From the NCBI GenBank assembly GCA_037127955.1, contig JBAXXI010000001.1, forward strand, positions 73,217 through 137,216: a stretch of DNA of 64,000 nucleotides. Direction: 5' to 3'. The notes below the pieces were generated by a model. The model made no database searches and was not told the origin of the DNA. It saw only the letters and a program-made list of their open reading frames with translations. The translations under genes were made by a program, and so were the position numbers. Numbering within the stretch: the first letter of the stretch is position 1; every line of letters begins with the position of its first letter. Source of the DNA: Candidatus Berkelbacteria bacterium (GTDB lineage Bacteria; Patescibacteriota; UBA1384; UBA12157). Shown here in pieces: positions 7,583 to 64,000 of this stretch.

Positions 7583-7612
7583 AAATAAAAAGACTAGCAT
7601 GAAACTAATCTT
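7583..7612 (-). terminator. rho-independent terminator after the tRNA-Leu/tRNA-Val pair
   Basis: Minus strand AGATTAGtttcatgCTAGTCT followed by TTTTTATTTT. Confidence 0.55.
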
Positions 7613-7617
7613 TTTAT

Positions 7618-7692
7618 TGGTGGGCGGTAGAGGATTCGAACCTCTGACCCTCTCGATGTAAACGAGATGCTCTACCGCTGAGCCAACCGCCC
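7618..7692 (-). tRNA. tRNA-Val (UAC), CCA encoded
   Basis: Minus strand GGGCGGTTGGCTCAGCGGTAGAGCATCTCGTTTACATCGAGAGGGTCAGAGGTTCGAATCCTCTACCGCCCACCA. Confidence 0.85.
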
Positions 7693-11472: not shown

Positions 11473-11502
11473 AAAAAAACTCATAATTATATGAGTTTTT
11501 TT
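11473..11502. terminator. bidirectional rho-independent terminator
   Basis: AAAAAAACTCATAattTATGAGTTTTTTT between convergent flavoprotein gene and tRNA-Leu(CAG). Confidence 0.7.
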
Positions 11503-11503
11503 G

Positions 11504-11589
11504 TGGTGCCCGAGAGAGGATTCGAACCTCCACGTCCTTGCGAACACTGACACCTGAAGCCAGCGCGTCTACCGTTCCGCCACTCGGGC
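11504..11589 (-). tRNA. tRNA-Leu (CAG), long variable arm, CCA encoded
   Basis: Minus strand GCCCGAGTGGCGGAACGGTAGACGCGCTGGCTTCAGGTGTCAG... Anticodon loop TTCAGGT. Confidence 0.8.
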
Positions 11590-11595
11590 AAGTCT

Positions 11596-16513: not shown

Positions 16514-16521
16514 AGTGTGTT

Positions 16522-16607
16522 TGGTGCCCGGGAGAGGACTTGAACCTCCACGATCTTGCGACCACCAGCTCCTAAGGCTGGCGTGTATACCATTTCACCA
16601 CCCGGGC
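16522..16607 (-). tRNA. tRNA-Leu (UAG), long variable arm, CCA encoded
   Basis: Minus strand GCCCGGGTGGTGAAATGGTATACACGCCAGCCTTAGGAGCTGG... Confidence 0.85.
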
Positions 16608-16637
16608 AAATATAAAATTTATATTCTAATTATATTT

Positions 16638-16655
16638 CGGAATACTGAAATTCCG
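16638..16655 (-). promoter_or_regulatory. leader hairpin motif A (CGGAATTTCAGTATTCCG on the minus strand) between a GGTATAGT -10-like element (16673-16680) and tRNA-Leu(UAG)
   Basis: Identical 18-mer to 38356-38373 after reverse-complementing. Same position relative to a GGTATAnT box. Confidence 0.5.
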
Positions 16656-16697
16656 CGTTAATCTATAGATTAACTATACCTTATTTTCAACGATTAA

Positions 16698-21575: not shown

Positions 21576-22328
21576 TTAATCATTGAGACCTTCCTCCATT
21601 TTTTCAATTTGAACTAAAATATTTTCGTCAAATTCCGCCCAACCACGAGTCATTTTCACCAGTTTTAAATAAAGCGATACTAAGGGCAGATTTTTATTAC
21701 CAATTGAAATGTTATCTTCCGCTACCCTGTATTTTAATAATTTCTCTTTGCTCGAAGCAAATTTATAATTTTTAATTGCGAGTCTAGTAAATAAATCATA
21801 ATCTTCGGCAATTTTAAAAAACTGATTGTAAGGATTATCTAATAAAACTTGTTTGCGCATCGCTACAGTCGAATGAGGAATAAAATTTATTTCTTTAATT
21901 TTTTCAAAAGAATAATCATAAACAGGAAAATTACGATCTTTGATCTCACCGGTTTTTTCATACCAAATATGAAAATCGCTATAAAAAAAATCCAAGGTCG
22001 AATCACGATCAAAAAATTTCAATGTCTCGCTGACCCTATTTTTATAAGCCAAATCATCGGAATCCAGAATAGCTACTATTTCACTTTTTGCTTGCATACA
22101 AGCAAAATTTCGAGCACAACTAGCACCAGTCCCATGCACCTTAGATAAGTAGAAGTATCTTAATCTTGAATCATGAAAATTTTCCACAATCTCTCTGGTA
22201 TTATCAGAGCCGTTATCAACGATGATCGCTTCCCAACTTGAATCATCCTGAGCCAAAAGTGATTTGATAGTCTCGCCAATCTTATCAGCCCGGTTAAAAG
22301 TCGCAATTAAAAATGAAATCTTCGGCAT
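21576..22328 (-). CDS. family 2 glycosyltransferase
   Basis: N-terminal ISFLIATFNRADKI...VDNGS (DXD-type GT-A fold). Confidence 0.8.
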   Translation of the reverse strand: MPKISFLIATFNRADKIGETIKSLLAQDDSSWEAIIVDNGSDNTREIVENFHDSRLRYFYLSKVHGTGASCARNFACMQAKSEIVAILDSDDLAYKNRVSETLKFFDRDSTLDFFYSDFHIWYEKTGEIKDRNFPVYDYSFEKIKEINFIPHSTVAMRKQVLLDNPYNQFFKIAEDYDLFTRLAIKNYKFASSKEKLLKYRVAEDNISIGNKNLPLVSLYLKLVKMTRGWAEFDENILVQIEKMEEGLND

Positions 22329-26834: not shown

Positions 26835-27806
26835 TTAGGCCTTTTTCAAAAATCCAGCGGCAGCTTCCGGTGCGACCACGTCAATGACTACACCAGAACC
26901 CAACTCATAACCACCAAATTTACTCACTCGTGGCGCAATTTCAATATGCCAGTGGTAGGACTCGTGATTATTTTCACTATGGTGCGGCAAAGTATGCAAC
27001 CAATAATTAAATGGTGGAAAATTTAAAGCTTTATTGAGTTTGCCAATTGCTTCGTGAAGCGCCTGGGCCAACTGTTTTTGAGTTTCCGCGGAAATTTTTT
27101 CAAAATTTGACGCGTGCTTTTTCGGCAACACCCACATTTCAAACGGAAAACGCGAAGCAAAAAAAGTAAAAACTAAAAATTCATCATTTTCATAAACCAC
27201 GCGGTGACCATTTTCCTTTTCCATTTTGACCATTTCGCAAAAAACACATTTTTGATTCAAGTCAAAATAAGTTTTAGCTCCATCAAGTTCTTTTTGAACA
27301 TAACTAGGCATGATGGCTGAAGTAAATAACTGCGAGTGAGGATGGTCAATCGAAGCGCCGGCTTCCGGACCATTATTGTGAATAATCATGGTATATTCAT
27401 TCACTGGATCTTCATCGTAGTGCAAATATCTTTGCTTGTAAACCCCTAAAAGTTCATCCATAATCGCCACGCCATCACCGTAAATTTCCTGATCATGACC
27501 CTTAATAATTATGACTTCATGGGCGCCAATACTTTTTGTATCTTGATAAAAACCGTCGCCTTCAGAAATCACACTATCTTCTTTAACAAAAGCGGGGTAT
27601 TTATTGGTAATAGTGTAAGTATTTTCGGTTTCGGCGTCTTTGATTGATGTCTCATAAGCCTGTTTATTTTCCACACAAAACGGACATTCCGAAGGCAAAC
27701 CGCGTTTTGGGGAGGCCGCTGTGACGTAATCTTCTGGTCTTTTTGATCGCTCCGGCGAAATGACAACCCAATCACCCGTAATAATATTTTGTCTAAGTTT
27801 AGGCAA
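26835..27806 (-). CDS. galT: galactose-1-phosphate uridylyltransferase-type (GalT/HIT family) nucleotidyltransferase, TTG start
   Basis: Zinc-site CPFCVENKQ and active-site HPHSQ motif. RBS GGAGGTG, then TTG at 27806. Confidence 0.75.
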   Translation of the reverse strand: MPKLRQNIITGDWVVISPERSKRPEDYVTAASPKRGLPSECPFCVENKQAYETSIKDAETENTYTITNKYPAFVKEDSVISEGDGFYQDTKSIGAHEVIIIKGHDQEIYGDGVAIMDELLGVYKQRYLHYDEDPVNEYTMIIHNNGPEAGASIDHPHSQLFTSAIMPSYVQKELDGAKTYFDLNQKCVFCEMVKMEKENGHRVVYENDEFLVFTFFASRFPFEMWVLPKKHASNFEKISAETQKQLAQALHEAIGKLNKALNFPPFNYWLHTLPHHSENNHESYHWHIEIAPRVSKFGGYELGSGVVIDVVAPEAAAGFLKKA

Positions 27807-27882
27807 AGTGCACCTCCATAATTTTTATACAAAATTCCGCGACAAGCGGAAGCTTGGCTATATTTTGACGTAATTTAGGCAT
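27799..27882 (-). CDS. leader mini-ORF (27 aa, MPKLRQNIAKLPLVAEFCIKIMEVHFA) whose N-terminus mimics the downstream galT-like protein and whose stop overlaps its TTG start
   Basis: SD AGGAGGG then ATG. First 8 codons encode MPKLRQNI, as in the downstream gene, using different synonymous codons. Contains palindromic motif B (GCCAAGCTTCCGCTTGTCGCGGAATTT). Confidence 0.4.
   Translation of the reverse strand: MPKLRQNIAKLPLVAEFCIKIMEVHFA
27832..27864 (-). promoter_or_regulatory. palindromic motif B copy 1 (minus strand GCCAAGCTTCCGCTTGTCGCGGAATTT) in the galT leader
   Basis: Inverted repeat TTCCGC/GCGGAA with a 5-nt spacer. Near-identical copies at 46215-46244 and 46325-46354. Confidence 0.6.
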
Positions 27883-27909
27883 ATGCCCTCCTATAAAATA
27901 TAAATAAAT

Positions 27910-28425
27910 TTACTCTTGGATTTCTTCCGAAACATACTTATGAAAATGAGCCATGGCTACTGCCAGAGCATCGGCCGCATCATCAAAACCATCTTTCTTG
28001 CCACCACTGACCGAGGCTTCCGGAAAAGCTTTTTTCACTTCTTCCACTACCTGTTTTTTATCTGATCGGCCATAACCCGTCACCGCCATCTTCACCTGCA
28101 TCGGCGTATATTCATAAGTCTGGTGCATCATGCCATTTTGACCACAGGCCAAAAGGATAACCCCGCGAGCTTCGGAAATTTTCATGACTGTTTTTTGATT
28201 ATTAAACATAAATAAAAGTTCAAGCGAAACCTGGTCTGGCTTATAATCTACAATCAAATTACTCACATTTCGAAAAACCGTCATCAACCGTTCCTGAGTA
28301 TTAGTCAACTTGTCGCTTTCAATACAGCCATGGGCAACATAGGCCACTTTACCATCTTTTTTATCTACATCAATCACACCCCAACCGCAACGTGTCGTTC
28401 CTGGATCAATTCCTAAAATTCGCAA
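27910..28425 (-). CDS. ruvC: crossover junction endodeoxyribonuclease RuvC
   Basis: MRILGIDPGTTRCGWGVI and a conserved acidic catalytic residue pattern. Confidence 0.9.
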   Translation of the reverse strand: MRILGIDPGTTRCGWGVIDVDKKDGKVAYVAHGCIESDKLTNTQERLMTVFRNVSNLIVDYKPDQVSLELLFMFNNQKTVMKISEARGVILLACGQNGMMHQTYEYTPMQVKMAVTGYGRSDKKQVVEEVKKAFPEASVSGGKKDGFDDAADALAVAMAHFHKYVSEEIQE

Positions 28426-40301: not shown

Positions 40302-40330
40302 TTGCCTCTTTGACATTTTATTGGTATAAT
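40302..40330 (+). promoter_or_regulatory. eno promoter with extended -10 TGgTATAAT (-35 uncertain, TTGCCT at 17-nt spacing)
   Basis: Seen directly. Confidence 0.45.
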
Positions 40331-40344
40331 AGAATAAATTCTAT

Positions 40345-40367
40345 GCGGAATTTCAGCATGCGGAAAT
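40345..40367 (+). promoter_or_regulatory. motif A variant GCGGAATTTCAGCATGCGGAAAT in the eno leader. A further CGCGGAATTTTTCAAAG copy sits at 40413-40434 next to the palindrome TTTTCAAAgTTTTGAAAA
   Basis: Shares the CGGAATTTCAG core with the copies at 16638 and 38356. Confidence 0.45.
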
Positions 40368-40394
40368 ATGGCCAACAATATTACATTATATTAA

Positions 40395-41756
<1,362 letters not shown>

Positions 41757-44353: not shown

Positions 44354-44488
44354 TACTAATATTATTGTTTAAGAATCTCCATATTTCCAAATACTGAAAT
44401 TCCGCGAGATTTTAAAACTATTGTTTCAAGATCTCCATACTGCTTCGCGACTCGAGATATTAAAGCTATTGTTTTAATATCTCCATAA
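44354..44488 (-). repeat. three tandem diverged copies (about 45-57 nt) of the lepA 3' end (TATGGAGATATTAAAACAATAG and variants), with a degenerate motif A copy (44387-44408) between copies
   Basis: Minus strand: lepA ends ...TTTATGGAGATATTAAAACAATAG, then ...GTATGGAGATCTTGAAACAATAG... and ...ATATGGAGATTCTTAAACAATAA downstream. Confidence 0.7.
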
Positions 44489-46202
44489 AAACGGAATCAG
44501 GGATTTCAAGACGACCCAACTGCTTCATTTTCTTTTTACCAGCCGCCTGCTTTTTCAAAAGTTTATTTTTACGAGTAATATCTCCGCCATAAAGTTTGGC
44601 AATAACATCTTTTTTCATGGCTGAAATATCTTCACGCGCCAAAATTTTACCAGGCTTACCATCAGTGCTATTCATAGCAATTTGAATCATGACCTCAAAC
44701 ATTTGTTTTGGAATCAAATCTTTAAGTTTTAAGGCCAAGGCTTTAGCCTGCGTTTGTACCTGAAAAGCGGGGACAATCTTATTAAATTCATCAATTTGCT
44801 GACTAGCCACAAAAACATCAAGTTTAACTAAATCACCAACTTTCCAGCCAATCAATTCGTAATTTTGCGACGCATACCCTTGAGTAGCCGATTTTAGTTT
44901 ATCGTAAAAATCAATGATAATTTCGGCTAACGGAGCCTCATACTTAATCACCGCCCGATCGCCAAAAAAGTTAGTTGTCTCGTAAACACCTCTTTTCATT
45001 TGAGCGAGTTCCATCACCTGGCCCAAGTATTCTTTTGGCGTAATGATTTCCATTTTAACCCAAGGTTCTTCGTAACGAGGCCTGCCTTCATCATGATTAA
45101 TTCGATATTCAACCGAAGGTTGGGTGACAATTAAATCTAAATTATTCTCGCGCTCCAAACGCTCTTTTACGATCTCTAAATGCAACAATCCCAAGAATCC
45201 ACAACGAAAACCATGACCAAAACTCTGTGAATTTTCAGGTTCATAAATCAAACTTGAATCATTTAATTTTAATTTTTCAAGCGCCGAACGAAGGTGATTA
45301 GGTTCTCCTCCCTGAAGAAAAAATGACGCATAGACCATTGGTTGCGGTTTTTTGTAACCCTCGATAGGGGAGACACCAATAGGGGAATTAAGAGTGACTG
45401 TGTCACCAACTTGAACATCAGCCAAATTTTTAGCGCCCGTCACAATATAGCCGATCTCCCCTGCCTCCAACGAAACTTTCGGCGCATATTTAAGCTTAAA
45501 CTCGCCTACTTCAACGGCCTCGGCGTTTTTATTAGCGGCCATAAATTTAATGCCCACGCCCTTACCCACTTTGCCATCCATCACTCTAATATAAGCAATG
45601 ACCCCACGGTAAGCATCATAAATCGAGTCAAAAATCATAGCCCGAAGCGGAGCCTCTATATCGCCTTTCGGTGCGGGAACTTGTTCAATCACTTTATCTA
45701 AAATTTCCAAAACCCCCTGGCCAGTTTTAGCCGAAACTCTTAAAATATCTTCGTCAAAAACACCGAGTAAATCTTGAATTTCCTCGCTCACCTCTTCGAT
45801 CATAGCATTTGGTAAATCAATTTTATTAATCACTGGTACAATTTTTAGGCCAGCTTTTTGGGCGTGCTCTAAATTAGCCAAAGTTTGGGCTTGAATGCCT
45901 TTCGTCGCATCCACCACCAAAATTGCCCCTTCAACAGCGGCCAAAGATCTTGAAACTTCATAGGCAAAATCAACATGTCCTGGCGTATCGATCAAGTTCA
46001 AGCTGTAACCTTTATAATCCATACGCACTGGCTGAAGTTTGATCGTAATACCGCGCTCACGCTCCAAATCCATGGTGTCGAGCATCTGCGGCTTACTATC
46101 GCGCACTTCAACCGTATGAGTTAACTCCAGCATACGATCAGCTAAAGTTGATTTACCGTGATCAATATGGGCTATAATTACAAAGTTCCTTATTTTATCC
46201 AT
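44466..46202 (-). CDS. lepA: elongation factor 4 (LepA)
   Basis: MDKIRNFVIIAHIDHGKSTLADR (G1 motif) and a LepA C-terminal domain. Start at 46202, preceded by AAAGGAG. Confidence 0.9.
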   Translation of the reverse strand: MDKIRNFVIIAHIDHGKSTLADRMLELTHTVEVRDSKPQMLDTMDLERERGITIKLQPVRMDYKGYSLNLIDTPGHVDFAYEVSRSLAAVEGAILVVDATKGIQAQTLANLEHAQKAGLKIVPVINKIDLPNAMIEEVSEEIQDLLGVFDEDILRVSAKTGQGVLEILDKVIEQVPAPKGDIEAPLRAMIFDSIYDAYRGVIAYIRVMDGKVGKGVGIKFMAANKNAEAVEVGEFKLKYAPKVSLEAGEIGYIVTGAKNLADVQVGDTVTLNSPIGVSPIEGYKKPQPMVYASFFLQGGEPNHLRSALEKLKLNDSSLIYEPENSQSFGHGFRCGFLGLLHLEIVKERLERENNLDLIVTQPSVEYRINHDEGRPRYEEPWVKMEIITPKEYLGQVMELAQMKRGVYETTNFFGDRAVIKYEAPLAEIIIDFYDKLKSATQGYASQNYELIGWKVGDLVKLDVFVASQQIDEFNKIVPAFQVQTQAKALALKLKDLIPKQMFEVMIQIAMNSTDGKPGKILAREDISAMKKDVIAKLYGGDITRKNKLLKKQAAGKKKMKQLGRLEIPDSVFMEILKQ

Positions 46203-46281
46203 GTATCTCCTTTGTAATTTCCGCGACAAACGGAAGTTTGGCCATAATTACGAAATTACGAATATTTGTTTGATTATCCAT
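46195..46281 (-). CDS. leader mini-ORF U2 (28 aa, MDNQTNIRNFVIMAKLPFVAEITKEIHG) mimicking the lepA N-terminus. Its stop overlaps the lepA ATG (CATGGATAA)
   Basis: The N-terminus MD..IRNFVI(M/I)A parallels lepA MDKIRNFVIIA with synonymous codon differences (CGT/AGG, AAT/AAC, TTC/TTT). Contains motif B (GCCAAACTTCCGTTTGTCGCGGAAATT). Confidence 0.4.
   Translation of the reverse strand: MDNQTNIRNFVIMAKLPFVAEITKEIHG
46215..46244 (-). promoter_or_regulatory. palindromic motif B copy 2
   Basis: Minus strand GGCCAAACTTCCGTTTGTCGCGGAAATT. Confidence 0.6.
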
Positions 46282-46354
46282 GTTGTTCCCCTGTTTCTAT
46301 GAAAACAAATTGATGTAATTTCGTAATTTCCGCGCAAATCCGAAGATTTGCCAT
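46274..46354 (-). CDS. leader mini-ORF U3 (26 aa, MANLRICAEITKLHQFVFIETGEQHG) containing the motif B variant. Its stop overlaps the U2 ATG
   Basis: ATGGCAAATCTTCGGATTTGCGCGGAAATTAC parallels the internal ATGGCCAAACTTCCGTTTGTCGCGGAAATTAC of U2. Confidence 0.3.
   Translation of the reverse strand: MANLRICAEITKLHQFVFIETGEQHG
46325..46354 (-). promoter_or_regulatory. palindromic motif B copy 3 (variant)
   Basis: Minus strand GGCAAATCTTCGGATTTGCGCGGAAATT. Confidence 0.5.
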
Positions 46355-46380
46355 TATTACAAAATTCATTGAGTTATTCA

Positions 46381-47775
46381 TTAGCGATGTTTCTCCATTT
46401 CTTTCAAAGCATCTTCTCTTGTATTAATTTTTCCATCCAGATAAGCTTGCTCTAAATAACTTTTAATTTGACCAACTTCTGGCCCTGCTTCAATCTTAAG
46501 TATTTTCATAATATCTTCGCCAGTGACCAAATCGAATTTTTTTACTTGATTTTTTTCTTCTTCACTGGTCTCGGCCTCAAATTTGGCGCGCAGCGCCAAT
46601 GCGTCTTGGTACATTTTCATATCTGGCTCATGATTCGGTCGAAGACTAGCCGACAAATCCGCTTTGGTCAAATCTAGAAGCAACTCAATATTTGGATCTA
46701 CAAAAAGCTTTTTTTGTTTGCGCTCACTCATACCAGTAAAAGCATGAACAATCCGCATGTGTTGACGGATCGCCCAACAAACTCTACTGATAAAATGACG
46801 CGAAAATTTAAAACGTTCCAGGATTTCTTCAGCTTGTTTAGCTGACTGAATATCATGATCAAAAAAAGTAATACTAGTTTTATTTTTTTCGGCCCTAAAA
46901 CCAATCGTTTCTGGTTTGGCAATATCATGAAGTAAAACTGTCCATACTAACTCCTCTGAGAGAGTTTCACCAATATTAATTAAAGCCAAAAGCACATGCG
47001 TCCAGACATCACCTTCAGCGTGAAATTCTTTTGGTTGTGGTACATTTTTCATTTTTGCCAGTTCTGGCGAAATTTCATCTAGCAAACCCAACTCATCAAG
47101 CATCTCAATAGCCAAATGTCTATTTTTTAATAATAACATTTTGCTAAATTCTTCACGAATTCTTTCAATAGAAATTTGCCCAATATTACTCGCTAATCGT
47201 TTGATCGCGATTTTAGATTCTTTTTCAAACATAAAACCGAAACGAATCGCAAATCTAACCGCTCTAAGCATACGCAAATAATCTTCGTTAATGCGATCAT
47301 CGGCATTTCCGATAAATCGAATATATTTTCTTTTAATATCTGTCAGTCCGTCAATATAGTCAATAATCTCAGATTTAATTGGATTGTAAAACATACCATT
47401 GATTGTAAAATCACGGCGTTGAGCATCTTTTAAGCTCGATGAAAACTTTACAGACTCAGGATGACGATGGTCACCCACTCCAACATCTTCACGAAAAGTC
47501 GCTACTTCAAATTCATGATTATCGATCTTAACCGCCACCACTCCAAATGATTTGCCGCGATCCTCAGCCATAGGAAAAATCTTTTTGATTTCTTCTGGAT
47601 GAGCAGCAGTGGCAATATCAATATCATGGGTCTCAACTCCTAAAATCATATCTCGAACAGCACCACCAGCAATATATGTTTCAAACCCCGCTTCTTGCAA
47701 GGTTTTCACCACATCAAAAGCCGCCGATTCTTCATCGGTCAAAGGACGTTCAATTTTAAAATTTATCTTTTCCAC
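46381..47775 (-). CDS. cca: CCA-adding tRNA nucleotidyltransferase / poly(A) polymerase family protein with HD domain
   Basis: Pol-beta-like head GGAVRDMILGVETHDIDIAT and a C-terminal HD domain pattern (HD...H). Confidence 0.8.
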   Translation of the reverse strand: MEKINFKIERPLTDEESAAFDVVKTLQEAGFETYIAGGAVRDMILGVETHDIDIATAAHPEEIKKIFPMAEDRGKSFGVVAVKIDNHEFEVATFREDVGVGDHRHPESVKFSSSLKDAQRRDFTINGMFYNPIKSEIIDYIDGLTDIKRKYIRFIGNADDRINEDYLRMLRAVRFAIRFGFMFEKESKIAIKRLASNIGQISIERIREEFSKMLLLKNRHLAIEMLDELGLLDEISPELAKMKNVPQPKEFHAEGDVWTHVLLALINIGETLSEELVWTVLLHDIAKPETIGFRAEKNKTSITFFDHDIQSAKQAEEILERFKFSRHFISRVCWAIRQHMRIVHAFTGMSERKQKKLFVDPNIELLLDLTKADLSASLRPNHEPDMKMYQDALALRAKFEAETSEEEKNQVKKFDLVTGEDIMKILKIEAGPEVGQIKSYLEQAYLDGKINTREDALKEMEKHR

Positions 47776-54022: not shown

Positions 54023-54058
54023 TCGTACTCAAAAAATACCAGAGTAAATAATTTAATT

Positions 54059-54133
54059 TGGTAGCGGGGAGTGGACTTGCACCACTGATCTCCGGGTTAT
54101 GAGCCCGACGGGATACTACTTCCCTACCCCGCG
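54059..54133 (-). tRNA. initiator tRNA-fMet (CAU), CCA encoded
   Basis: Minus strand starts CGCGGGG and ends CCCCGCTACCA (unpaired 1:72). Anticodon arm TCGGGCTCATAACCCGA with three G-C pairs. Confidence 0.85.
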
Positions 54134-58037: not shown

Positions 58038-61000
58038 TTAATTTATCTTTTTCATCTTGATATTGACTGAAACCAAGGTCTTTTCCTTCTCAAGATACAT
58101 AATATGAGACTTGAAATCAGTATATTCTGGTTTGGTGGCAGTCAAGTAATAAATACCAGGATTAACCAAGAACTTAAACCGACCATCGATATCAGTTACA
58201 TCTGTTTCGACTAATCTATTTGTACGTTTTTCGTAAATTCTCACGATCGTAGTCTCAAGTGGTCGACCAAAAATATCAGTAACAACACCATATGGTCTGG
58301 CTCGTTTGGTTCTTAAATATTCCCAAATCGCAATCAAAATATAAAATATTAAGGAGAAAATATAGAAAATATTAATCGAAATAATCATCAAAACAATGGC
58401 AAACATTATACCTAGAACCAACAAGACGATTCTAACAGTATTTAAAATTCGGTTAAGCTTGATGGTAAAGACTAACAATTTATAACTAAAAGATAATTTA
58501 GTTTGAGCATCCATTGGCACATTAATAGTGACCGTTTTATCCTTACTATCAATCTCTAAGACTTCACCAGTATAAACCGAATCGAAGAAACCACTAACTT
58601 TCATAACTGACGGGAAAGTATAACCATTTTTTTGAACTGTTAAATAGTATTTGCCTGTTCTGACCAAGAAGCCAAATCTACCTTCACCATCGGAAACCGC
58701 AGTTTCAAGTAAACGATTATATTCTTTATCAAAAATCTTAATCAAAGCATAAGGAATGGCTTGACCGGTTTGTGAATTAAAGACCGTACCCCATGGCTTT
58801 CGTCGTTTACGAATGCCCAAAAATTGGAACAAATGACTCAAAAGATAAAGAAGTTGTGGCCAAATATTGGCAGTCGCTAAAACAGCGTTTAGAACAATTG
58901 GTGCGGCCAATAAAGAACTGGTTGTAACAATAACAGCGTTGGAAACACTCTTAGCTTCTGGAGTTAAACCTTCGGTACTAATATTAGCAAACAAACTATT
59001 AATCTGATCTTGGGTTTTTTGCAAAGTACTAGTAACACCATTGCCAATAACTTTGATCTGTACATTTTGTTGAATCTGCCCGTCAGTCACAGTTAGCTTC
59101 TGGTCACCCACAGTATTTAGAGTAAAATCTGAGCCGTCGAACGAGTGTGTACCAGTATCAGACGCACTAAAGGTGTACTTATGATCACTATTCCAAATTA
59201 ATTCGGCTTTTTTATCAGAAGATGTAAAGTAAATTTCGCCTAGATAAGATTGAATTCTGGCGCCACCATTGTCAACCGCGCTCACTTTAACCTTATCGTT
59301 AAAAGTCTGACCAGCATTAATTTTATCTGGAGTATTATCAAGTACAAGATAAGCTTGAACCGCTAAGGCATCGCCTTTTTTGGTTGAAACATTCAAAATA
59401 CTAGATTTCAAAGAAGTATTACCGGCTGCGTCATAAGCTTTAATATAGAAATTATAAACAGTTTCTGGAGTCAATTGAGTCAAATCAAAATCAGTATTTG
59501 AAGTTGTACCGATCATGACATCAGTATCGGCATTGAATATTTTATAACCGGTTACACCGACATTATCGGTCGAAGCATCCCAGGCCAAACTAATCTCAGT
59601 CGATTTGATAACGGTAGCTCGAAGATTGGTCGGCGCAGTTGGCCCTTCATTATCCGTAACGTTCGTCGGCGTCAAAGCTAATTGTTCGGTTCCACTGGAG
59701 ATATGACCAAGTGAATCAATCGCTTTTAAGGTATAATAATAAGTCACGCCATTGGTCAAATTGGAATCAGTATAAGATGTTCCGGTTTGACCCGTAGCTA
59801 ATTTTACCCCTTGAACTGTTTTTTCAAGTGAACGATAAATGTCGATCGATTTGAAATATGTTGACGAAGGATTGGTCCAAGTCAATTCGACCTGACCATT
59901 ACCAGCTACTCCAGAAAAGTTAATCGGATTATCAATTGAGGCTGGGTAAGTTCCAAATGTCACTTCAATAGTGTGATTGGCCGTAATTGAGCTAAAGGTA
60001 TAAGTTTCAAGATCATATTTTGAAACGCCATCAACCTGAACATTCCTAATAAAGTAACCAGAATTGGCACTAATCGTAAAGGTTTTATTTGAAAGCGCAT
60101 CCACTATTATCGAACCACTTGGTGTAATACTACCTCCGTTACCTGACGAAGCAGTAATAGTATAAGTCGTAACAGCAATGGTCGCAGCGATCGTGTGATC
60201 AGTAGTGACATTGCTAAAAGTATAAGTAGCCAAAGCCCCAACCGAGACACCATCAATCTTCAAGTCTTCAATATAATAACCGGCATCAGGAGTGATAGTG
60301 TAGATCTGGCTCGAACCATCATCAACCAAAGTCGAACCAGATGGCGAGACTGTACCGTGGGCATTAATCGTGGCCGTAATGGTATGGCTTGTTCCAGTAG
60401 GAGTAACCGGATTTGCGCTAAAACTAGCCGAAATTGTATGATTCGTGGTTACAGTGGTAAAGGTATAATTACTGACCGAACCAACTGAAACACTATCAAC
60501 CAAAACATCTTCAATATGATAACCAGATGAAGGCAAAATCGTATAAGCCTGGTTTGAACCATAATTAACTGTTGTCGCACCGTCCGGATCAATCGAACCA
60601 TGCGAACCAGCTAAAGCCGTTATTGTTTTTGTATCAACTATAAATGTTGCTGAAATAGTATGAGAAGTAGTAACGTTGTTAAAAGTATAAGTTGTCACAG
60701 AACCGACCGAGACACCGTCAACTAATACATCCAAAACGTGGAAATTATCATTGGCCGTAATAGTGTAGGCTCGATTTGAACCATAATTAATCGCCGTAAC
60801 ACCGGTTGGTGAAATCGAACCATTAGTGCCAGCCGAAGCTGTAATATTATTAGTATCGATGGCGAAAGTCGCAGACACTGTTAAATTAGAGGTAATATTT
60901 GAATCGGTACGAGCTTCCGTTAAAACTCCATCAGACCAAGAAACAAAATGATAATGAGCACTTGGCACGGCCGTAACCTGAGAACCGTTACCTCCATAAT

Positions 61001-64000
61001 TAACGGTTTGTGGGGTGGTACCCGTGATCGAACCGTTTGAACCAGCATTATAGGTCAGAGTGTAAGTATTGATCGCAAAAGTCGCCGTTACAGTGATATT
61101 ATCTGTTACATTAAGGTCTGTTCTGGCTGCCGTCATCACATTATCCGACCATTTAACAAAATGATAATTGGCTGCCGGTACAGCTGTCACTTGAGCACCA
61201 TTTGAACCATAACCAACGGTTTGAGAGGTTGTACCAGTGATTGAGCCGTTTGAACCAGCATTATAGGTCAGGGTGTAAGTGTTGATGGCAAAATCAGCAG
61301 TGACGGTGATATCGGTAGTAATATTTAAATCGGTTCGAGCGGCTGTCATCACGTTGTCAGACCACTTAACGAAGTGATAATTCGTATCAGGTATAGCTAC
61401 AACTTGCGTACCATCCCCACCAACATAAACTGTCTGGGAAGCATTGCCAGAAATAGTACCATGTGAACCAGCTGTATAAGATAAAGTGTATTGATTTTCG
61501 GCAGCAAAATTAGCCGTGACTGTAATATTACCTGTCACATTTAGATCAGTTCTGGCCGCCGTCAAAACACCATCAGACCAAGTAGTAAAATGATAATTCA
61601 AATTTGGTACAGCTGTAACTTGTGTGCCGTTTGCACCATAATTGACGGTTTGTGGGGTAATACCTGTAATCGAACCATTCGCACCAGCTGAGTAAGTTAA
61701 GGTATAAGTATTAACAGCAAAAGTGGCGGTCACAGTTATGTCAGCTGTAATATCTAAATCAGTACGAGCGGCGGTCATGACATCGTCTGACCATTTAACA
61801 AAATGATAATTTGTATTTGGCGTAGCAATAACTTCACTACCGTTTGCACCATAACCAACAGTTTGAGGAGTTATGCCGACAATCGTACCGTTAGAATCAT
61901 GATTGTAAGTTAAGGTGTAAGTATTAATAGCGAAGGTCGCGGTGACTGTAATATCATTTGACACACTAGAATCAGTACGAGCCGCCGTCATCACATTATC
62001 TGACCACTTAACAAAATGGTAATTAGAATCTGGAACAGCCGTAACCTGAGAACCACTACCTCCGTAATTGACAGTCTGAGGAGTAGTACCAGTAATTGAA
62101 CCATGCGAACCAGCCGAGTAAGTTAAGGTATAAGAATTTATAGCAAATGTAGCACTAACTGTTAAATCAGAAGTAATGTTTTGATCAATACGGGCCGCGG
62201 TCATCACGTCGTCTGACCATTTAACAAAATGATAGTTGTCATCAGGAACAGCCAGGACTTGGCCACCGTTAGCACCATAATTGACGGTTTGAGGTGTTAC
62301 ACCAGACACAGAACCATGAGAACCAGCATTGTAAGTTAGAGTGTAAGTATCAATGGCAAAGGTCGCCGTTACGGTTACATCAGCCGTGATATTCGAATCA
62401 GTACGAGCAGCCGTTAAAACGCCATCAGACCAAGAAACAAAATGATAGTGAGCACTTGGCACGGCCGTAACCTGAGAACCGTTACCTCCATAATTGACGG
62501 TTTGTGGGGTAATACCTGTAATCGAACCATTCGCACCAGCAGAATAAGTCAAAGTATAAGTATCAATGGCAAAAGTGGCGGTGACCGAAATATTAGCTGT
62601 GATGTTTGAATCTGTTCTAGCCGCCGTCATGACATCGTCCGACCATTTAACAAAATGGTAATTGGCCGCCGGAACCGCTGTTACCTGCGTACCGCTAGCA
62701 CCATAATTGACAGTTTGTGGGGTAGTACCAGTGATCGAACCGTTTGCACCAGCAGAGTAAGTCAAAGTGTAAGTATCGATGGCAAAGGTTGCAGTGACTG
62801 TAATATTATCCGTCACATTCAAATCAGTACGAGCTGCCGTCATGATGTCGTCTGACCATTTGACAAAATGATAATGAGCGCTCGGTACGGCTGTAACTTG
62901 AGTACCATTTGCGCCATAATTAATGGTTTGAGGATTGGTACCAGTAACCGAGCCATTGCCATCGTTGTTATAAGTCAAAGTATAAGTATTAATCGCGAAA
63001 GTCGCCGTTACCGTAATATTAGCTGTAACGTTAAGATCAGTACGAGCCGCCGTTAAGACATTATCAGACCAAGAAACAAAATGATAATGAGCCGACGGAA
63101 CCGCTGTCACCTGTGTACCATTTGCGCCATAATTAATGGTTTGAGGATTGGTACCAGTAACCGAGCCATTGCCATCGTTGTTATAAGTCAAAGTATAAGT
63201 ATTAATCGCGAAAGTCGCCGTTACCGTAATATTAGCTGTAACGTTAAGATCAGTACGAGCCGCCGTTAAGACATTATCAGACCAAGAAACAAAATGATAA
63301 TGAGCCGACGGAACCGCTGTCACCTGTGTACTATTTGCGCCATAATTAATTGTTTGCGGCGTAGTGCCCGTAATTGAACCATTTGAACCGGCATTATAGG
63401 TTAAAGTGTATGTATCGATGGCAAATGTCGCCGTTACCGTAATATCAGCTGTAATATTTGAATCGGTACGAGCGGCTGTCAGTACGCCATCAGACCAGGA
63501 AACAAAATGATAATGAGAGTTTGGCACGGCGGTTACTTGAGTACCGTTTGTACCATAATCAACAGTCTGAGGGGTGGTACCAGTAATTGAACCATTTAAG
63601 CTAGCATTATAAGTCAAAGTGTAGGTATTAATCGCAAAGGTCGCAGTGACAGTCAAATTAGCTGTGATATTTTGATCAATACGGGCCGCCGTCATCACGT
63701 CGTCTGACCACTTAACAAAGTGGTAATTGGCGTCTGGCACAGCTAAAACTTGGCCACCATTAGCACCATAATTGACGGTTTGAGGTGTTACACCAGAGAC
63801 CGAACCATGAGAACCAGCATTGTAAGTTAGAGTATAAGTGTCGATCGCAAAAGTAGCCGTTACCGTAATATTGGCCGTAACATTAAGATCAGTACGAGCG
63901 GCAGTCATGACATCGTCTGACCATTTAACAAAATGGTAATGAGAGTTTGGTACGGCGGTGACTTGCGTACCGTTTGCGCCATAATCAACAGTCTGAGGGG
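58038..64000 (-). CDS. giant cell-surface protein (over 1956 aa; 5' end beyond window). At least 14 tandem 71-aa Listeria/Bacteroides-type repeats (TYTLTY...YHFVSWSD...), then divergent Ig-like repeats, two FN3 domains, two carboxypeptidase-regulatory-like domains and C-terminal TM segments
   Basis: Repeat consensus TYTLTYNAGSNGSITGTTPQTVNYGANGTQVTAVPSAHYHFVSWSDGVLTAARTDLNVTANITVTATFAIN. The FN3 hallmark is LTWTNP...YYYTLKAID. The reading frame continues open to the window end. Confidence 0.8.
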   Translation of the reverse strand, partial: PQTVDYGANGTQVTAVPNSHYHFVKWSDDVMTAARTDLNVTANITVTATFAIDTYTLTYNAGSHGSVSGVTPQTVNYGANGGQVLAVPDANYHFVKWSDDVMTAARIDQNITANLTVTATFAINTYTLTYNASLNGSITGTTPQTVDYGTNGTQVTAVPNSHYHFVSWSDGVLTAARTDSNITADITVTATFAIDTYTLTYNAGSNGSITGTTPQTINYGANSTQVTAVPSAHYHFVSWSDNVLTAARTDLNVTANITVTATFAINTYTLTYNNDGNGSVTGTNPQTINYGANGTQVTAVPSAHYHFVSWSDNVLTAARTDLNVTANITVTATFAINTYTLTYNNDGNGSVTGTNPQTINYGANGTQVTAVPSAHYHFVKWSDDIMTAARTDLNVTDNITVTATFAIDTYTLTYSAGANGSITGTTPQTVNYGASGTQVTAVPAANYHFVKWSDDVMTAARTDSNITANISVTATFAIDTYTLTYSAGANGSITGITPQTVNYGGNGSQVTAVPSAHYHFVSWSDGVLTAARTDSNITADVTVTATFAIDTYTLTYNAGSHGSVSGVTPQTVNYGANGGQVLAVPDDNYHFVKWSDDVMTAARIDQNITSDLTVSATFAINSYTLTYSAGSHGSITGTTPQTVNYGGSGSQVTAVPDSNYHFVKWSDNVMTAARTDSSVSNDITVTATFAINTYTLTYNHDSNGTIVGITPQTVGYGANGSEVIATPNTNYHFVKWSDDVMTAARTDLDITADITVTATFAVNTYTLTYSAGANGSITGITPQTVNYGANGTQVTAVPNLNYHFTTWSDGVLTAARTDLNVTGNITVTANFAAENQYTLSYTAGSHGTISGNASQTVYVGGDGTQVVAIPDTNYHFVKWSDNVMTAARTDLNITTDITVTADFAINTYTLTYNAGSNGSITGTTSQTVGYGSNGAQVTAVPAANYHFVKWSDNVMTAARTDLNVTDNITVTATFAINTYTLTYNAGSNGSITGTTPQTVNYGGNGSQVTAVPSAHYHFVSWSDGVLTEARTDSNITSNLTVSATFAIDTNNITASAGTNGSISPTGVTAINYGSNRAYTITANDNFHVLDVLVDGVSVGSVTTYTFNNVTTSHTISATFIVDTKTITALAGSHGSIDPDGATTVNYGSNQAYTILPSSGYHIEDVLVDSVSVGSVSNYTFTTVTTNHTISASFSANPVTPTGTSHTITATINAHGTVSPSGSTLVDDGSSQIYTITPDAGYYIEDLKIDGVSVGALATYTFSNVTTDHTIAATIAVTTYTITASSGNGGSITPSGSIIVDALSNKTFTISANSGYFIRNVQVDGVSKYDLETYTFSSITANHTIEVTFGTYPASIDNPINFSGVAGNGQVELTWTNPSSTYFKSIDIYRSLEKTVQGVKLATGQTGTSYTDSNLTNGVTYYYTLKAIDSLGHISSGTEQLALTPTNVTDNEGPTAPTNLRATVIKSTEISLAWDASTDNVGVTGYKIFNADTDVMIGTTSNTDFDLTQLTPETVYNFYIKAYDAAGNTSLKSSILNVSTKKGDALAVQAYLVLDNTPDKINAGQTFNDKVKVSAVDNGGARIQSYLGEIYFTSSDKKAELIWNSDHKYTFSASDTGTHSFDGSDFTLNTVGDQKLTVTDGQIQQNVQIKVIGNGVTSTLQKTQDQINSLFANISTEGLTPEAKSVSNAVIVTTSSLLAAPIVLNAVLATANIWPQLLYLLSHLFQFLGIRKRRKPWGTVFNSQTGQAIPYALIKIFDKEYNRLLETAVSDGEGRFGFLVRTGKYYLTVQKNGYTFPSVMKVSGFFDSVYTGEVLEIDSKDKTVTINVPMDAQTKLSFSYKLLVFTIKLNRILNTVRIVLLVLGIMFAIVLMIISINIFYIFSLIFYILIAIWEYLRTKRARPYGVVTDIFGRPLETTIVRIYEKRTNRLVETDVTDIDGRFKFLVNPGIYYLTATKPEYTDFKSHIMYLEKEKTLVSVNIKMKKIN
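60650..64000 (-). repeat. tandem 213-bp coding repeats inside the giant surface protein gene (some adjacent units identical, e.g. about 62940-63366)
   Basis: Identical translated mini-ORFs in the six-frame track at 62868 and 63081 (offset 213 bp), and a visibly periodic DNA sequence. Confidence 0.8.

Follow-up and report, generated by a model that had tools for sequence, protein, structure and literature searches.

A small structured repeat appears to sit between two copies of a translation-initiation module at a galT-like gene, and again at lepA, in a 64,000-nucleotide (nt) stretch of a Candidatus Berkelbacteria genome (contig JBAXXI010000001.1, positions 73,217 to 137,216; hereafter the window, numbered from its first letter). 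The galT module would comprise a Shine-Dalgarno (SD) sequence, a start codon, and the first 8 codons. Its upstream copy would be the displaced old start, opening a 27-codon leader open reading frame (ORF) that reads through the repeat and ends inside the TTG start; its downstream copy would be the working galT start. We put the probability of the reading as a whole, a repeat between duplicated initiation modules with the old start serving as a leader relay, at roughly 0.55. For convenience, the upstream copy of the N-terminal codons is called the decoy, and loci fetched for comparison are given L numbers.

The decoy start of the galT-like gene

The features around the start of the galT-like gene are as follows.

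27910..28425, minus strand: ruvC, upstream neighbour of the galT leader (ORF list; Pfam RuvC, E=3e-36), with its stop TAA at 27912-27910
27886..27892, minus strand: first SD, AGGAGGG, for the decoy ATG, read from the sequence
27799..27882, minus strand: galT leader ORF of 27 codons, MPKLRQNIAKLPLVAEFCIKIMEVHFA and a stop (sequence and ORF list)
27859..27882, minus strand: decoy N-terminus, ATG and 7 codons, encoding the same amino acids as the real protein with 5 synonymous nt differences
27841..27858, minus strand: hairpin H1, GCCAAGC-TTCC-GCTTGTC, the covarying stem of the repeat family (alignment and pair counts; covariance-model match 27820-27871, 57.6 bits)
27832..27840, minus strand: invariant family core GCGGAATTT (from the GCGGAAWTT count)
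27835..27851, minus strand: hairpin H2, the palindrome TTCCGC-TTGTC-GCGGAA, then TTTTGT (terminator-like pattern match)
27807..27838, minus strand: 3' part of the spacer, with an AATTTT-GTATA-AAAATT hairpin, the second SD, and the spacer to the TTG, common to L022/L023
27817-27811, minus strand: second SD, GGAGGTG (sequence)
26835..27806, minus strand: galT-like uridylyltransferase gene, TTG start at 27806, 323 residues (ORF list; Pfam GalP_UDP_transf/HIT-type)

Over 27799-27892 the minus strand reads AGGAGGGcatATG CCT AAA TTA CGT CAA AAT ATA GCC AAG CTT CCG CTT GTC GCG GAA TTT TGT ATA AAA ATT ATG GAG GTG CAC TTT GCC TAA. The first-pass annotation, made from the letters alone, described here a mini-ORF of 27 residues whose TAA overlaps the TTG start, and both the sequence and the ORF list agree. 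In particular, the stop (27801-27799) is positioned 5-7 nt inside the real galT ORF, and the leader frame is the sole frame open across the element. The leader and the real gene are read in different frames, with starts 76 nt apart. The same annotation held that removal of 81 nt would restore a plain ATG-initiated gene; the correct length is 76 nt (27858..27783).

The real protein, starting from TTG 27806, begins MPKLRQNIITGDW. As had been claimed, its first 8 residues are repeated in the leader by synonymous codons only. Decoy and real codons 2-8 differ at 5/21 nt (TTA/CTT, CGT/AGA, ATA/ATT), and an all-synonymous outcome has P=2.6e-4 when 5 changes are placed randomly. A scan of every gene start in the window finds such N-terminal mimicry only at galT and lepA, and there are no further genes with decoy N-termini in the window or in the fetched loci. 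A scan of the gene strand for sigma-70-type promoters in the galT and lepA leaders found nothing.

Stacked leaders upstream of lepA

The galT locus had been taken as a second instance of an arrangement at lepA, and this holds. The 27-nt motif GCCAAGCTTCCGCTTGTCGCGGAATTT (27858-27832) recurs with 3 mismatches at 46242-46216, upstream of lepA (chance expectation 0), and lepA has mimic leaders of its own.

46274..46381, minus strand: leader unit 1, MNNSMNFVIMANLRICAEITKLHQFVFIETGEQHG and a stop (covariance model, 70.7 bits); its ATG shares one base with the cca stop (TAATG)
46351-46334, minus strand: unit 1 hairpin GCAAATC-TTCG-GATTTGC, with the core at 46333-46325 and the stop inside the next ATGGATAA
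46195..46281, minus strand: leader unit 2, MDNQTNIRNFVIMAKLPFVAEITKEIHG and a stop (covariance model, 71.7 bits)
46242-46225, minus strand: unit 2 hairpin GCCAAAC-TTCC-GTTTGTC, with the core at 46224-46216
46212-46207, minus strand: lepA SD, AAGGAG (sequence)
44466..46202, minus strand: lepA (EF4), real start ATG 46202, N-terminus MDKIRNFVIIAHIDHGKS (P0121, 100% identity, 578 residues)

The order in the window is cca joined by TAATG, unit 1 (MNNSMNFVIMANLRICAEIT...HG and a stop), unit 2, and lepA, every stop falling within the following ATGGATAA. Unit 2 of the window has the sequence with which the closest LepA orthologues (88%) begin, MDNQTNIRNFVIIAHIDHGKS, and the real LepA N-terminus of relatives, MDNQTNIRNFVI, equals it as well. 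In L016-L018, exactly one unit, MNNIRNFVIMAKLPLVAEITKLHQFVFIDTRGYNG and a stop in ATGGATAA, lies between cca and lepA. L020 (81%) also has one unit, and its decoy is interrupted by a nested 42-nt in-frame block, MAKLKLGAEFSREN. L019 (85%) and L021 (86%) have no unit, and a different upstream gene overlaps the lepA start (GTGA and ATGA, respectively). The lepA site thus exists with 0, 1, and 2 units across lineages. Judging from these sequences, a once-working N-terminus at the window's lepA is now a leader, demoted by a second event at the same codon (GTAATTAT followed directly by GGCC).

The copies at lepA also differ by synonymous changes only, at 5/18 nt (P=1.4e-4) and 4/18 nt (P=1e-3); the two copies in L020 are identical at 17/17 nt. 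One stretch of the unit 1 tail is unusually similar between lineages: the 26-nt sequence AAATTACATCAATTTGTTTTCATAGA (window 46296-46321, minus strand; L016 ~1562-1587) is identical at 26/26 nt, with flanks ~20-26% diverged, and it contains the anti-SD-like UUGUUUUC.

A repeat family with a variable stem and an invariant core

The middle piece had been described as a small inserted element. It is indeed recurrent, with family copies both in the window and in relatives. As far as the aligned copies tell, the family is a variable-stem hairpin followed by an invariant GCGGAAWTT and an AT-rich tail. The H1 variants include GCCAAGC-TTCC-GCTTGTC, GCCAAAC/GTTTGTC, GCCAAGC-TAAA-GCTTGGC, GCAAATC-TTCG-GATTTGC, and GCAAATCA-GTT-TGATTTGC. 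The stems are wholly different between copies (GCCAAGC, GCAAATC, GTTAATC, GATCGAT, GCCAACAT), and it is the structure and the 3' flank that are conserved. In an outer stem, the element tail (AATTACAAA at lepA, ATTTTG at galT) pairs with the last of the N-terminal codons (TTTGTAATT and CAAAAT, respectively).

In eight aligned copies, several of which share descent, H1 and the outer stem are 85.8% paired, and 6 pairs are changed on both sides. The covariation is 0.301, compared with 0.099 in shuffles (0/500 reach the observed value) and at most 0.125 in slid controls. The palindrome that the first-pass annotation pointed to is H2 (TTCCGC/GCGGAA), which shows no compensatory change, has an invariant 3' arm, and is mutually exclusive with H1; it is the overlapping H1 that covaries.

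GCGGAAWTT occurs 12 times in the window (3.2 expected; 0/100 shuffles reach 12), and ~7 of the 12 belong to family copies, mostly in spacers. The covariance model of the family recovers all copies and flags weaker ones, in which a hairpin of unrelated sequence precedes GCGGAAWTT(T)C...GAAA(A)TAT. Copies away from the two gene starts are the following.

16630..16674, minus strand: GTTAATC-TATA-GATTAAC and GCGGAATTTCAGTATTCCGAAATAT (25.7 bits; core 16656), between an HHH-protein gene and a tRNA gene
40329..40445, plus strand: two tandem units upstream of enolase (cores 40345 and 40411; covariance model)
44375..44439, minus strand: long hairpin, then GCGGAATTTCAGTATTTGGAAATATGG (core 44405), 61 nt past the lepA stop

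Within the second enolase unit, an ATG at 40398 shares the frame of eno; a start there would extend the protein by 26 residues, with the Enolase_N domain starting at residue 27. Between two minus-strand genes, GCGGAATTTGACGAAAATAT at 21630-21638 (minus strand) may be a further family copy with a weak hairpin. In relatives, family copies lie just past the galT stop, as a tandem pair in L011. Where an upstream gene exists, the copies examined are co-oriented with it.

In L005, from a metagenome-assembled genome labelled Saccharibacteria, the ~50 nt of the element are all that is common with the window, and the element is a 42-nt in-frame block between tRNA-Thr and an ORF. The same locus carries, at 1383-2802, a split reverse transcriptase (RVT_1) and a divergent bAvd-like four-helix protein, which suggests a retroelement of the diversity-generating (DGR) type. 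The RVT_1 region is directly upstream of tRNA-Gly, tRNA-Thr, and the 42-nt element copy.

A conserved peptide, AKLPLVAEF, was considered and rejected. With one extra nt, copy L020b keeps its nucleotides but has an unrelated peptide; by this comparison the conserved entity is the nucleic acid and not the peptide.

In Rfam 15, only tRNAs match the window at the gathering threshold, and nothing meaningful matches either leader at E<=10. Exact-pattern scans cover the canonical motif only, the broader variable-stem family being outside their scope. Within that scope, reference genomes give one true match (L005) and one chance match. Metagenomes give the same locus (L007) and a 21-mer in a gene resembling that of seryl-tRNA synthetase, probably by chance. 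Viral contigs give only chance matches in G+C-rich DNA, and none for the commoner core variant. The metagenomic 21-mer (L008 1233-1253), AAACTTCCGCTTGTCGCGGAA, is an identical match, reads KLPLVAEV in the coding sequence, and is probably a coincidence.

Orthologues and polarity at galT

Orthologues of the galT-like protein down to 58% identity all begin MPKLRQN or M[SA]KLRQN. An insertion-free, ATG-initiated galT, for which the first-pass annotation had suggested a comparative check, exists in L011/L012 (77%), L013 (78%), and L014/L015 (72%), where the SD stands directly upstream of the ATG. The distance between ruvC and galT is 103 nt in the window and -8, 12, or 37 nt in these outgroups; P0004 has a gap of 88 nt (length only). 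In L013, ruvC overlaps galT by 8 nt and ends at a TAA inside ATGCCTAAA. This is the same TAA, in the same frame, as the stop of the window's galT leader.

The nearest relative with DNA is L022/L023 (81% identity), L022 coming from the same sample as L017. Both L022 and L023 have the TTG start, the GGAGGTGC.CT SD, and the AATTTTGTATAAAAA stretch of the window; the SD of L022 also reads GGAGGTGCGCT, and identity to the window is ~87% from 27838 downward. Upstream of this common part is an A+T-rich spacer of 118 nt with no hairpin and no ATG decoy. Being shared, the TTG, the second SD, and the insert's 3' half are ancestral to this clade, as far as these loci tell. The claim that the element carries its own SD is not supported by this comparison, since L022/L023 have the same second SD without decoy or H1. 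The window's second galT SD resembles a copy of the first (GGAGGGCATATG vs GGAGGTGCACTTTG).

The L022 spacer itself (2383-2500) contains three TTTTGTAT repeats together with TACGAAATTAC-type repeats that look like decayed tails of the lepA-type element.

Origin of the duplication and of the synonymous differences

The length of the duplication is ~4-5 nt at L005 and at the L020a copy, ~38 nt at galT, and 40-47 nt at lepA. Because the lengths vary in this way, a fixed staggered cut by a transposase seems unlikely. The junctions always have ..A(A/T)TAT followed by (G/A)GCC and resemble the joint between tandem family units, a form that suggests microhomology-guided or unequal recombination, or template switching. 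We propose that the duplication arose when the repeat arrived, through microhomology-guided or unequal recombination to which diverged lineages may have contributed DNA.

In both real genes, the first ~86-99 nt differ in phylogenetic affinity from the gene body; those of galT are L013-like and the rest is mostly L022-like. At the galT start, 14/17 informative sites are L013-like (prefix permutation p=0.0015; gene-wide scan p=0.021), and at the lepA start, 11/16 are L020-like (prefix permutation p=0.012). Foreign-like informative sites cluster most strongly in the first ~90-100 nt of each gene. In addition, the decoy codons of the window's galT (TTA CGT) resemble the real codons of L022 (TTA CGA), and the real lepA codons of the window (ATA AGG) resemble unit 1 of relatives. 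Given the mosaic 5' ends, these codon likenesses, and the 17/17 identity in L020, exchange with diverged alleles or gene conversion can explain the synonymous-only pattern. For the most part, the amino-acid identity of the decoy would then be a side effect of duplication and of later allelic exchange or gene conversion. The earlier claim that both copies are under amino-acid selection is thereby weakened: the synonymous-only pattern is significant, but recombination between lineages or gene conversion could produce it with no selection on the peptide. Adenine mutagenesis of the DGR type between the copies was rejected by eye; one difference is T/C, and those containing A go in both directions.

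A further and more speculative proposal, which we think improbable, is that the repeat targets, or is generated at, translation-initiation regions and duplicates SD, start, and first codons with each arrival, the stacked decoys being kept as a relay or switch. The mechanism could be pairing of the tail with the first codons, or copying of the mRNA 5' end.

Leaders as possible relays, and the alternatives

In 5/5 leader units, the leader frame is the only frame open across the repeat, even where the hairpin length differs (joint chance of leader openness ~0.002), with the stop starting 1-5 nt past the first base of the following start. In the outgroups, the start overlaps directly with the stop of the upstream gene. 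Therefore, the leaders reproduce the native coupling geometry across a structured spacer. The displaced old starts may thus act as relays of translational coupling. The leader ORFs would persist by relaying ribosomes over the structured insert to the real start through termination-reinitiation, and the relay would replace the stop/start overlap of the outgroups with their upstream gene.

Several observations weigh against this proposal. The coupling is read from geometry. The 45-nt galT core folds more stably than shuffles (z=-2.64), but the whole galT leader does not (z=0.24). The covariation depends on the eight copies, with their partly common descent. L022 may have lost the decoy and hairpin, in which case the leader would be dispensable there, or the window's lineage may have gained them later. 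The duplication has candidate mechanisms only, with varying lengths, and the lepA mosaic is not significant gene-wide (p=0.18). The leader copies of L016 and L020 differ by 4 synonymous and 0 non-synonymous changes. Such synonymous-only divergence goes beyond what a relay needs, and could reflect selection on the leader peptide.

The leader could instead be a selected attenuator or translational switch, in which mimic codons, tail, and real N-terminal codons form alternative pairings, and translation of the leader decides the availability of the real SD and start or of a terminator-like hairpin. The tail is complementary to both the decoy and the N-terminal codons of the real gene. With the latter included, predicted minimum-energy folds choose the pairing of the tail with the real codons, which encloses SD and AUG; in unit 1 of lepA, the UUGUUUUC stretch is predicted to pair with the next SD. 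At galT, H2 followed by TTTTGT matches a terminator pattern, and H1 and H2 exclude each other. The 26/26 identity in the unit 1 tail also fits a switch. However, most orthologues lack the device, as does L022, whose TTG and SD are the same; no regulatory logic common to galT and lepA is obvious; and the leaders contain neither a regulatory codon run nor a known arrest motif. There is no terminator-like site at lepA, H2 shows no covariation, and the same repeat also lies past stop codons and by tRNAs, without a leader. We regard a switch as an unlikely explanation.

Another possibility, to which we likewise give little weight, is that recombination or repair left the repeat and the duplicated start behind, the gene using its own strong SD and the leader being unselected. 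Both real starts do have strong SDs, and L022 has the TTG and SD alone, with no decoy. Unit 1 of the window's lepA shows amino-acid decay (MNNSMNFVIMA, compared with MNNIRNFVIMA in relatives). Against a neutral scar, all five leaders keep the ATG, the open frame, and the stop on the next start at ~20% divergence, the 1-nt shift of L020b is compensated downstream, and the decoy codons have no non-synonymous change.

It is very improbable that the upstream ATG is the true start and that the ribosome skips the 76 nt by bypassing or frameshifting. Matched codons do stand at the ends of the gap (AAT/AAT at galT; ATT and GCC at lepA), there is a hairpin past the putative take-off site, and both copies are conserved at the amino-acid level. 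However, no stop or rare codon follows the take-off codon, the leader being open to its end; the gap exceeds those known for bypassing; a strong SD and a start of its own serve the downstream copy; two hops in succession would be required at lepA; and L022 starts at the TTG with nothing upstream. In addition, ATA and ATT are usually read by different isoleucine tRNAs, which counts against bypassing. A +1 frameshift at the leader end, resembling that of release factor 2 (RF2), was set aside, no slippery codon and stop being seen by eye. Finally, a sequencing or assembly artefact, such as a collapsed or chimeric repeat, which the first-pass annotation had named as a possible explanation, is refuted: the galT leader is base-identical in independent assemblies of different samples (ERZ27299977 and SRR7053536), 8 contigs encode the exact galT-like protein, and L016-L018 and L020 have homologous arrangements of diverged sequence.

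These loci indicate that essential genes of a very compact genome can tolerate a small repeat within their first codons. The initiation module is duplicated as a whole, the former start living on as a leader ORF whose stop falls on the new one. At lepA, lineages with 0, 1, and 2 units catch successive stages of the process, in which a working N-terminus is demoted. Such loci mislead the annotation of start codons and create short ORFs that resemble conserved peptides. If the relay or the targeting proposal is true, they would provide a natural test bed for translational coupling and could reveal a new insertion mechanism in candidate phyla radiation (CPR) bacteria, which are not yet genetically tractable. 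Initiation targeting, if true, would mean that elements insert, and 5' gene ends turn over, in reduced CPR genomes in a way not described before.

Other features of the window

A very large ORF (58038-63900, minus strand) contains 14 tandem repeats of 213 nt (71 residues) with 62-83% mutual identity. The window has 12 tRNA genes, several of which have long similar 3' halves (7611-7644, 11497-11591, 16515-16609, and 54052-54085; repeat families D18 and D20).

Comparison with known systems

A full-text literature search returned no description of stacked decoy starts around a small repeat. The repeat is like repetitive extragenic palindromic (REP) sequences, bacterial interspersed mosaic elements (BIME), and REPINs in being short (~40-70 nt), hairpin-forming, dispersed, mostly in spacers, co-oriented with a neighbour gene, and present in tandem copies. 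Unlike REP and REPIN sequences, the palindrome is not conserved in sequence between copies, the conserved part being the 3' flank GCGGAAWTT, and some copies are found within translated 5' regions, with duplicated start modules on either side. No 5' GTAG tetranucleotide was noticed by eye next to the hairpins. No gene for a REP-associated tyrosine transposase (RAYT) was seen in the 64-kb window, though no scan aimed at RAYT or TnpA was made. The repeat also departs from miniature inverted-repeat transposable elements, since the flanking duplications (~4-5, 38, and 40-47 nt) are not fixed and the outer stem uses host codons, not element termini.

Rickettsia palindromic elements (RPEs) are likewise small palindromic repeats inside ORFs, and the copies at L005 and L020a form in-frame blocks of exactly 42 nt (14 codons). 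RPEs, of roughly 100-150 bp, lack a duplicated N-terminus. Unlike RPEs, the repeat at galT and lepA lies outside the mature protein and is read in a leader frame that ends at a re-created start; an in-frame reading of the Rickettsia type is possible only at L005 and upstream of enolase. Elements of the SXT/R391 group, which insert in prfC, rebuild the 5' end of their target gene, and are ~100-kb elements with an integrase and att sites. As there, a second copy, slightly different, takes over from the displaced original N-terminal coding end, and the target of SXT/R391 is a translational GTPase too. In contrast to SXT/R391, the intervening DNA is 40-70 nt, there is no recombinase, and the units stack.

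Programmed bypassing, as in T4 gene 60 and the byp elements of Magnusiomyces mitochondria, also involves a short G+C-richer hairpin insert in an A+T-rich coding region with matching flanking codons. The present loci differ in having no stop past the take-off codon, an independent SD and start downstream, and a gap of 76-100 nt; the galT leader runs for 19 more codons, and the downstream copy has GGAGGTG and TTG. Of the features of leader-peptide attenuators, the loci have a leader ORF and, by prediction, alternative pairings; sensing codons were not found, the whole-leader z of 0.24 gives no excess of folding, and the device is absent in galT of L011, L013, L014, and L022 and in lepA of L019 and L021.

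In geometry the loci are like translational coupling by overlapping stop and start (termination-reinitiation), known from many operons and phage genes. Here the leader stop of every unit falls within 1-7 nt of the following start, the stop offsets are +1 to +5 nt in 5/5 units, cca joins unit 1 through TAATG, and the downstream SD is predicted to be partly sequestered. Unlike in usual coupling, the upstream ORF is a relic of the gene's own start and not a separate gene, and up to three ORFs chain, from cca through unit 1 and unit 2 to lepA.

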